Shown piece after piece: positions 47,687 to 47,905 of a DNA stretch of 64,000 nt (position 1 is the first letter of the stretch; each line of letters begins with the position of its first letter). Under the pieces are notes generated by a model, which ran no database searches, was not told the origin of the DNA, and saw only the letters and a program-made list of their open reading frames with translations. A program made the position numbers and the translations under genes. Source of the DNA: Candidatus Heimdallarchaeota archaeon (GTDB taxonomy: Archaea > Asgardarchaeota > Heimdallarchaeia > Heimdallarchaeales > Heimdallarchaeaceae); contig JAHLWR010000013.1 of assembly GCA_019057815.1 (NCBI GenBank), forward strand, positions 1 to 64,000, in the 5' to 3' direction.

Positions 47687-47710
47687 TTCGTCTTTCTCTC
47701 AACAGTGTTT

Positions 47711-47831
47711 TCAGGTTCGGAATGAGTCTGAGTGTTACTCCTTCACTATGGCCGCGACGTATCGCAGCTAATAACCCTTCCCAAGACCTCGCGGATCTTA
47801 GTACCAAGCCACACGTGGAAGGACTTAACTT
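47711..47831 (-). rRNA. rrf: 5S rRNA, circularly permuted gene (3' half 47831-47762, TACG linker, 5' half 47757-47711)
   Basis: Rejoined 117 nt folds as 5S: helix I TCGCGGC/GCTGCGA, helix II GTGAAGGA/TCCTTC(C)AC, helix III CTCAG/CTGA(AA)G, loop C ACTCATTCCGAAC, loop E GGTA/GAA, helix IV CTAAGA(T)CC-GCGA-GGTCTTGG. Confidence 0.92.
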
Positions 47832-47905
47832 TCCTGTGCATCCGGAACGCGTCCAGATACTTACTGACATCGTTGAGATGTGACTAACTGGGAGAAAGGT
47901 TGTTT

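Follow-up and report, generated by a model that had tools for sequence, protein, structure and literature searches.

Organization of the locus

In the window (the whole stretch of Heimdallarchaeota DNA under analysis, 64,000 nt) the minus strand carries a 5S rRNA gene in permuted order, the 3' part being encoded ahead of the 5' part. The elements of the locus are listed below in the direction of reading.

47914-47907, minus strand: putative TATA-like box TTTTTAAG, its centre about 26 nt upstream of a predicted transcription start near 47884
47878-47867, minus strand: 5' strand of the terminal (candidate processing) stem, UCUCAACGAUGU, paired with 47708-47697 in the minimum free energy (MFE) fold
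47866-47861, minus strand: CAG followed by UAA, a first, weaker copy of the candidate splice helix (h1) with its bulge; at most 3 bp at this locus
47860-47838, minus strand: extra hairpin GUAUCUGGA-CGCGU-UCCGGAUGC, 47860-47852 paired with 47846-47838, 9 bp in the MFE fold
47836-47833, minus strand: CAGG, 4 nt, candidate splice helix strand h2, able to pair with CCUG at 47715-47712
47832-47830, minus strand: leader-side bulge AAA, 3 nt, predicted 5' cut site, positioned by the known bulge-helix-bulge rule
47831-47762, minus strand: 5S 3' part, AAGUUAAG...GCUGCGA, 70 nt (47829-47762 from GUUAAG on)
47761-47758, minus strand: UACG tetraloop, read directly from the sequence, closing helix I where a normal 5S has both of its ends
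47757-47711, minus strand: 5S 5' part, UCGCGGCC...CCUGA, 47 nt, also read as UCGCGGCCAUAG...CCGAACCUGA; helices from the MFE fold
47711-47709, minus strand: trailer-side bulge AAA, 3 nt, predicted 3' cut site, from a scan of bulge lengths
47708-47697, minus strand: 3' strand of the terminal (candidate processing) stem, ACACUGUUGAGA, partner of 47878-47867
47685-47681, minus strand: T5 tract, a likely terminator
47830-47710, minus strand: predicted excised and ligated product, a 121-nt ring, built in silico

The 3' part contains the 3' strand of helix II, helix V, loop E, helix IV, loop D (GCGA) and the 3' strand of helix I (GCUGCGA); the 5' part contains the 5' strand of helix I (UCGCGGC), loop A, helix II, loop B, helix III and loop C, helix III being formed by UCAG (47731-47728) with CUGA (47714-47711). 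Ten Watson-Crick pairs, one G-U pair and one A-C mismatch make up the 12-nt flanking stem. In the family alignment an A/T-rich box lies at an equal distance in relatives and a T-tract directly follows the stem in most of them; the h1 element of most family members is UCAG placed directly after the stem, pairing with CUGA and having a 3-nt bulge opposite. Every sequence feature that an earlier description of this locus, made from the sequence alone, had named was found at its given position in a direct reading of the minus strand.

A tRNA-His (GUG) gene with an anticodon-loop intron of about 19 nt (47494-47583, plus strand) converges on the 5S gene. A 93-aa open reading frame (47589-47870, minus strand) overlaps the RNA gene and was taken as spurious; automatic annotation would probably list it, wrongly, as a "hypothetical protein". 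Positions 49372-63993 of the minus strand form a single open reading frame (4873 aa).

Similarity to 5S rRNA and predicted folding

When the two parts were searched separately against the 5S rRNA model RF00001, the 3' part matched model positions 49-120 (25.3 bits, E 7.6e-4) and the 5' part positions 2-53 (22.1 bits, E 3.7e-3). The halves were scored singly in place of an Infernal score for the re-ordered sequence, and such half-by-half scores omit the pairs formed between the halves; their sum nevertheless exceeds the curated cut-off of 38 bits. In its native order the locus never reaches this cut-off as a contiguous match: relaxed thresholds gave a mis-threaded match of 18.8 bits together with a loop C match of 13.6 bits. 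A score of 18.8 bits is what is expected of a permuted gene, and is thus no argument against homology; it also bears out the forecast of the sequence-only reading that standard annotation would overlook the gene. At curated thresholds the sole Rfam match of the 64-kb window was the neighbouring tRNA. Weak matches to SNORD50, SNORA38 and mir-2229 were rejected, as they lie far under their cut-offs and rest on the loop C sequence of the 5S.

In the MFE fold of the 190 nt as they stand in the genome, all of helices I to V are present in the permuted arrangement, together with the stem and the hairpin; the predicted ring, when opened in silico at the cap, folds into the canonical 5S structure. The half-wise matches, the fold and the covariation described below go far beyond what chance would give and bear out the earlier claim of a true permuted order with the 3' half first, as well as its two details, a helix I capped by a UNCG-type loop and a break located at the AA bulge of helix III.

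Copies in the genome and distribution among Asgard archaea

The genome, 95% complete, comprises 48 contigs totalling 3.74 Mb. A search for a canonical 5S copy in it, which the sequence-only reading had proposed, found none: the only RF00001 match at E<=10 was the window locus, the permuted form being the only kind found. A second permuted copy (G000:C43:238919-239104, plus strand, locus L028) is 91% identical to that of the window and differs in loop C (CCGAAC to CUGAAC), in helix III, in helix I and by a 1-nt deletion in CUUGGGAA near loop E. With R1, a covariance model of the family form, the window copy scored 198 bits and the L028 copy 174 bits; judging from its sequence, the latter may be a decaying paralog.

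Full-length R1 matches were obtained in 44 of the 47 genomes of the order and in 78 of the 83 genomes of the class Heimdallarchaeia, with all 7 families represented; a canonical 5S was not found among these 83 genomes. For the phylum we used an even sample of 151 Asgard genomes and a second permuted model of wider scope, R2, which was derived from a set of 39 diverse genes. Strong full-length R2 matches occurred in 89 of the 151 genomes, belonging to about 20 families. RF00001 exceeded its cut-off in 49 of them; one of these is a mis-threaded 38.4-bit match on a permuted gene (family f4), and the remaining 48 have a canonical 5S and fall into six families (f11, f15, f17, f20, f27 and f28), in which R2 gave weak, overlapping half-matches only, at the RF00001 locus. 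None of the 151 sampled genomes contained both a permuted and a canonical gene. The permuted layout is ancient and extends across most of the Asgard lineages sampled.

A permutation-specific pattern was also run over one genome for each of 185,579 species and matched 69 loci. Among the matches whose lineage label is specific, three stand out as odd, and the rest belong to Asgard groups (Heimdallarchaeota, Hodarchaeota, Odinarchaeia, Baldrarchaeota, Atabeyarchaeia, Njordarchaeota, Helarchaeota and Asgardarchaeum). The odd labels are Deferrimicrobium sp., a bacterium (L110, DATKTP010000169.1), Thermoproteota (L166, JAPDJY010000015.1) and Thorarchaeota (L127, JBHLQZ010000003.1); the last bears a Heimdallarchaeaceae-type sequence, and the three contigs look mis-binned or mislabelled. 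Closed genomes with the permuted gene include two of Heimdallarchaeum and two of Atabeyarchaeia, and the pattern found two permuted copies in each of the Heimdallarchaeum pair.

Two unusual arrangements were observed. One genome has a tandem permuted pair (L026:1434-1877, G026:C18; part of the second copy reads N), whose copies have unrelated stems, CUCCCA/UGGGAG and GCUUUCU/AGAAAGC, and share the same geometry of CCAG-AGA in the leader and CUGG plus 3 nt in the trailer. A member of family f14 (L100:68-273, G182:C450) has an insertion of about 30 nt within the loop C region of its permuted 5S.

Covariation and conservation

Within the family, the permuted order was recovered by DNA similarity in 23 of the 24 other genomes, none of which has an RF00001 match over the cut-off. 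RNAalifold applied to 27 family sequences retrieved the whole structure de novo, with double changes in 29 of its 49 pairs. Paired cells amount to 97.9% in this structure, against 27-46% when the partners are slid, and on none of five measures did any of 500 shuffles reach the observed value. By element, double changes affect 9 of 10 pairs of the stem, 4 of the 8 consensus pairs of the hairpin and 3 of 7 pairs of helix I with its cap. The permutation in relatives and the covariation of the flanking stem, on which the sequence-only reading had asked for evidence, are both present. The cap itself reads UGCG, UUCG or CUCG in relatives or is replaced by a longer capped hairpin, and its closing pairs display compensatory changes. 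In the phylum-wide alignment 28 of the 30 core pairs have such double changes; as judged from these alignments, the covariation shows selection on every helix.

A search of sequencing runs for this stretch returned four matches, contigs of unknown kind from one study with no RNA run among them, and they look like DNA from a number of related strains. The UACG junction is spanned, without a difference, by Logan contigs of three runs. In JGI metagenome contigs the canonical-order junction, as in the predicted joined form CATTCCGAACCTGAAAGTTAAG, had 0 matches and the genomic form 15, a count which shows only that no canonical-order gene of the window's family is present there.

An artefact or a dead gene (a misassembled tandem 5S repeat or a rearranged pseudogene, with the true 5S hidden in an assembly gap) would find some room in the 48-contig draft and in the second, more degenerate copy (G000:C43), but its probability is negligible, since misassembly is excluded by the three-run DNA contigs, the JGI junction counts and the closed genomes taken together, the same order recurs in dozens of independent assemblies, every helix appears to be under selection and no canonical 5S was found among the 83 class genomes.

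Given that the halves match RF00001 separately, that no other match exists in the genome, that the order is conserved and that compensatory changes are found, the locus is a 5S gene, in all likelihood the one that the organism uses, in permuted form, and that it is real, conserved and circularly permuted is as good as certain.

The flanks as a candidate bulge-helix-bulge motif

In the compact forms of the gene the stem is immediately followed by 4 nt which copy the 5' strand of helix III and pair with its 3' strand. In Odinarchaeia, for instance, the leader reads GGUAGUAUCG-CGUG-AAA-GUUAAG... and the trailer ...UCGAU-CACG-GAA-CGAUACUACC, so that a stem of 10 bp is followed by a helix of 4 bp with a 3-nt bulge on either side, the two bulges lying on opposite strands. 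This geometry matches the definition of the bulge-helix-bulge motif (PMC4731332). The element equivalent to h2 co-varies with the 3' strand of helix III across lineages, in at least nine pair types (CGUG/CACG, CCGG/CCGG, CCAG/CUGG, CGGG/CCCG, CCGA/UCGG, CUGG/CCAG, CAAG/CUUG, CCGU/GCGG and UCAG/CUGA). When both bulge lengths were allowed to vary in a scan, with the trailer spacing free from 0 to 7 nt in the larger set, the trailer bulge was 3 nt long in 22 of the 25 sequences that scored well and, in the larger set, in 36 of 44 such sequences; the full grid peaked sharply at 3. The stem varies freely across lineages in sequence and in length, from 6 to 14 bp, as processing stems do.

At the window locus a CAGG/CCUG helix, two AAA bulges and the 12-bp stem together correspond to a bulge-helix-bulge, in which the extra hairpin interrupts the leader strand. 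Splicing endonucleases cut after the second nucleotide of the bulge. Joining in silico by this rule gives, in Odinarchaeia, CACG-GA linked to A-GUUAAG, a junction of the canonical CGG-AA-GUUAAG type, and it also restores the canonical junction in sequences of family f4 and of the Hod type (f5). For the window it links CCUG-AA to A-GUUAAG, which equals CUGA-AA-GUUAAG, the canonical helix III junction; position 47710 would thereby be joined to 47830, with ...CCGAACCUGAA continuing directly into AGUUAAGUCC.... The splice conformer of the window transcript lies only 2.1 kcal/mol above the MFE.

Of the flanking elements described in the sequence-only reading, the stem (11 of 12 pairs) and the hairpin do exist and are conserved, but not in the role assigned to them, that of a replacement terminal helix and an expansion segment holding the new ends in a mature RNA of about 190 nt. 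A 4-bp helix between two 3-nt bulges fits a processing signal better, and most permuted lineages have no hairpin that could act as such a segment. Judged by their sequence, the flanks resemble a signal for processing more than they do an expansion segment.

The extra hairpin and the choice of splice helix

The extra hairpin is confined to part of the class and to Atabeyarchaeia, and it is absent from compact forms such as those of Odinarchaeia, Baldrarchaeia and family f4. In Heimdallarchaeaceae and Atabeyarchaeia a hairpin of about 30 nt separates the stem from the candidate splice helix. Atabeyarchaeia have CGUG-AGA twice, once on each side of the hairpin; Heimdallarchaeaceae have UCAG-ACA after the stem and CGGG-AAA or CAGG-AAA ahead of GUUAAG. 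Elements on both sides of the hairpin would allow two routes, either a single cut through a three-way junction or two steps with the hairpin leaving like an intron. In silico, the canonical junction results only when the second helix is used, and the second helix is likewise favoured by one Heimdallarchaeum copy in which the helix adjoining CAGG is 5 bp long and accompanied by a 3-nt bulge. The loop sequence of the hairpin is well conserved within the family, which is unexpected of a discarded RNA. Inspection of the hairpin by eye yielded no convincing box C/D or K-turn motif.

Splicing enzymes in the genome

Two paralogs of the tRNA-splicing endonuclease EndA are encoded (G000:C35:19289-19519 and G000:C12:2994-3254), of 202 and 214 aa, 26% identical to each other and each with both domains; they matched with 98 and 49 bits, and the ligase RtcB with 459 bits. 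The divergence of the two EndA sequences suggests a heteromeric enzyme, a class described as the most relaxed in its choice of substrate (PMC4731332). The RtcB match is split (G000:C38:129362-132214, minus strand, loci L180/L181): the parts covering profile positions 1-50 and 49-426 are separated by about 1.5 kb within one open frame of 1015 aa, as if the protein were interrupted by an intein-like insertion.

Proposed processing and alternative explanations

In the mechanism that we propose, a TATA-like box would set the start a few bases ahead of the stem, and a short primary transcript, from about 47884 to the T-tract at 47685-47681, would comprise little beyond the motif and its cargo. Leader and trailer would fold into the 12-bp stem and, adjoining it, CAGG (47836-47833) would pair with CCUG (47715-47712) between the two AAA bulges to form the bulge-helix-bulge. 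The tRNA-splicing endonuclease would then cut both bulges and RtcB would ligate the inner ends; the resulting junction, CUGA-AA-GUUAAG, would be that of a canonical helix III and the product a covalently closed 5S of 121 nt, the stem and probably also the hairpin being discarded.

The conformer at 2.1 kcal/mol above the MFE, the EndA paralogs and RtcB make such a pathway feasible in this genome. A splice motif is further favoured by the consideration that a permanent decoy competing with helix III would make little sense in a ribosomal RNA, and the permuted SRP RNA of Thermoproteus, which is cut and circularised, offers a precedent for cutting and joining. Against the proposal, the hairpin between the stem and CAGG creates a three-way junction rather than a textbook bulge-helix-bulge, and its loop is conserved; a second candidate helix stands at the stem (CAG/CUG here, UCAG/CUGA in relatives), the use of which would keep the hairpin inside the ring; and helix III can form locally during transcription and is the MFE state, so that the long-range splice helix must compete with it. 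On balance, a permuted gene whose transcript is cut and joined at a bulge-helix-bulge to yield a closed 121-nt 5S appears to be the best overall explanation, one that we hold to be moderately probable. For its separate parts, it is likely that the transcript is cut and joined at the splice motif, while for the ring being the ribosomal form the chances seem about even at best. That the ring, and not a re-opened form, enters the ribosome is the least certain part of the explanation, together with the manner in which the hairpin would leave, in the same step or in a second, intron-like one.

One alternative is that the transcript of about 185-190 nt stays uncut and enters the ribosome as a larger, linear, permuted 5S, in which the stem would serve as a new terminal helix and the hairpin would form an expansion segment on helix III. 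This alternative is favoured by the conservation and covariation of stem and hairpin, by a hairpin loop whose sequence is maintained in the family and by an MFE fold that holds stem, hairpin and helix III together; mature permuted 5S RNAs are known from brown-algal mitochondria (PMC4267664), and large insertions are reportedly tolerated in the 5S of Halococcus (PMC7530397). What it leaves unexplained is the 4-nt copy of the 5' strand of helix III beside the stem, which co-varies with the 3' strand, and the 3-nt spacing kept on both sides in many lineages; moreover, the free sequence and length of the stem resemble those of processing stems and the hairpin is no general property of the permuted genes. 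We therefore regard an uncut linear RNA as unlikely, and the passing suggestion of the sequence-only reading that the RNA was "possibly circular" turns out, under the processing model, to be a better reading than its linear one.

Alternatively, the ring might be an intermediate only, which after cutting and joining would be re-opened at or near the helix I cap to give an ordinary linear 5S, in the manner of permuted tRNA genes. Permuted tRNAs of Cyanidioschyzon pass through a circular intermediate that is then opened (as relayed by a citation in PMC4267664), and the circular 16S and 23S precursors of archaea are commonly thought to be re-opened (PMC12918454). The cap, however, whether it is a stable tetraloop of UNCG type or a longer closed hairpin, has neither a conserved sequence nor a cleavage signal of known kind, and no enzyme is evident for such a cut. 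In addition, helix I has 7 bp plus the cap, versus 9 bp in the canonical Asgard 5S; the cap seems to replace the last pairs and not to extend them. This re-opening we consider quite improbable, more so than the uncut linear RNA, and the cut and closed 121-nt 5S is retained as the preferred reading.

If extended to the phylum, the same reading would mean that most Asgard ribosomes, including those of the Heimdall and Hod groups as named in the record labels, carry a closed circular 5S made from a permuted gene by the tRNA-splicing machinery, and that the permuted or canonical state is an old and clean marker within the phylum; we put this forward tentatively, at somewhat less than even chances.

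Significance and comparison with known systems

The 5S rRNA is a universal part of the ribosome, and its permuted form spans most of the sampled Asgard lineages. In archaeal, bacterial and nuclear genomes the 5S gene is thought easy to find (PMC4267664); owing to the permuted order, RF00001-based annotation finds no 5S gene in these genomes, the closed ones included. The literature on permuted or circular 5S in archaea and Asgard archaea yielded no report of such a gene, and a published survey of 5S expansion segments does not mention a permuted 5S gene; a chromosomal, cell-encoded permuted 5S gene, for which we found no report, is a new kind of 5S gene. Should the predicted ring be the mature RNA, an obligatorily circular 5S would be known for the first time, and the tRNA-splicing machinery would build a component of the ribosome. 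The split between permuted and canonical genes also offers a discrete character for Asgard phylogeny.

The permuted 5S of brown-algal mitochondria (mtPerm-5S; Valach et al. 2014, PMC4267664), in which a 5' terminal hairpin takes the place of helix I and the two ends are located where the alpha and gamma domains meet, is similarly a 5S with an unusual domain order that standard models overlook. The algal RNA, however, stays permuted and linear, whereas in the Asgard gene helix I is intact and capped, the break lies in helix III and the flanks hold a candidate splice motif; assignment to the mtPerm-5S type was rejected on the state of helix I and the position of the break.

Circular 5S fragments have been described in Halobacterium and Sulfolobus (PMC12558985); they are minor, have variable junctions, come from normal genes and were proposed to be degradation products. 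They share with the predicted Asgard product that they are circular 5S-derived molecules, but they are no obligatory product of a permuted gene. Among the large rRNAs, 23S rings are known in archaea (PMC12918454) and a permuted 23S in Pyrococcus (PMC7758197). These have in common with the present proposal the cutting of rRNA at a bulge-helix-bulge, its ligation and the occurrence of circular rRNA in ribosomes; their genes, in contrast, keep the normal order, and it is the native ends that are joined. According to a 2026 paper on circular rRNA in archaea, the 5S lies outside the circularisation pathway (PMC12918454).

Permuted tRNA genes are found in the archaeon Thermofilum pendens. Those of Cyanidioschyzon merolae were described by Soma et al. 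2007, known here through its citation in PMC4267664. As in the Asgard 5S gene, the 3' half is encoded first; the new ends have a splice motif and a circular RNA is made in the course of expression, as is predicted for the Asgard gene. The ring of the tRNA is afterwards opened into a linear molecule, whereas the Asgard helix I is capped and displays no re-opening signal.

The closest parallel in processing is found in Thermoproteus tenax and T. uzoniensis, whose permuted SRP RNA becomes circular after the splicing endonuclease has cut it at a bulge-helix-bulge (Plagens et al. 2015, eLife, PMC4731332). In both cases an essential structured RNA has its halves swapped and a short leader and trailer can fold into the bulge-helix-bulge; in Thermoproteus ligation restores a functional helix and yields a ring, and the endonuclease is heteromeric, two EndA paralogs being present in the Heimdallarchaeota genome too. 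They differ in that the RNA concerned here is the 5S rRNA, a component of the ribosome, in that the permutation extends to most of a phylum instead of two species, and in the extra hairpin at the joint. Furthermore, processing is predicted for the Asgard 5S, whereas that of Thermoproteus was shown by RNA-seq, northern blot and enzyme assay.
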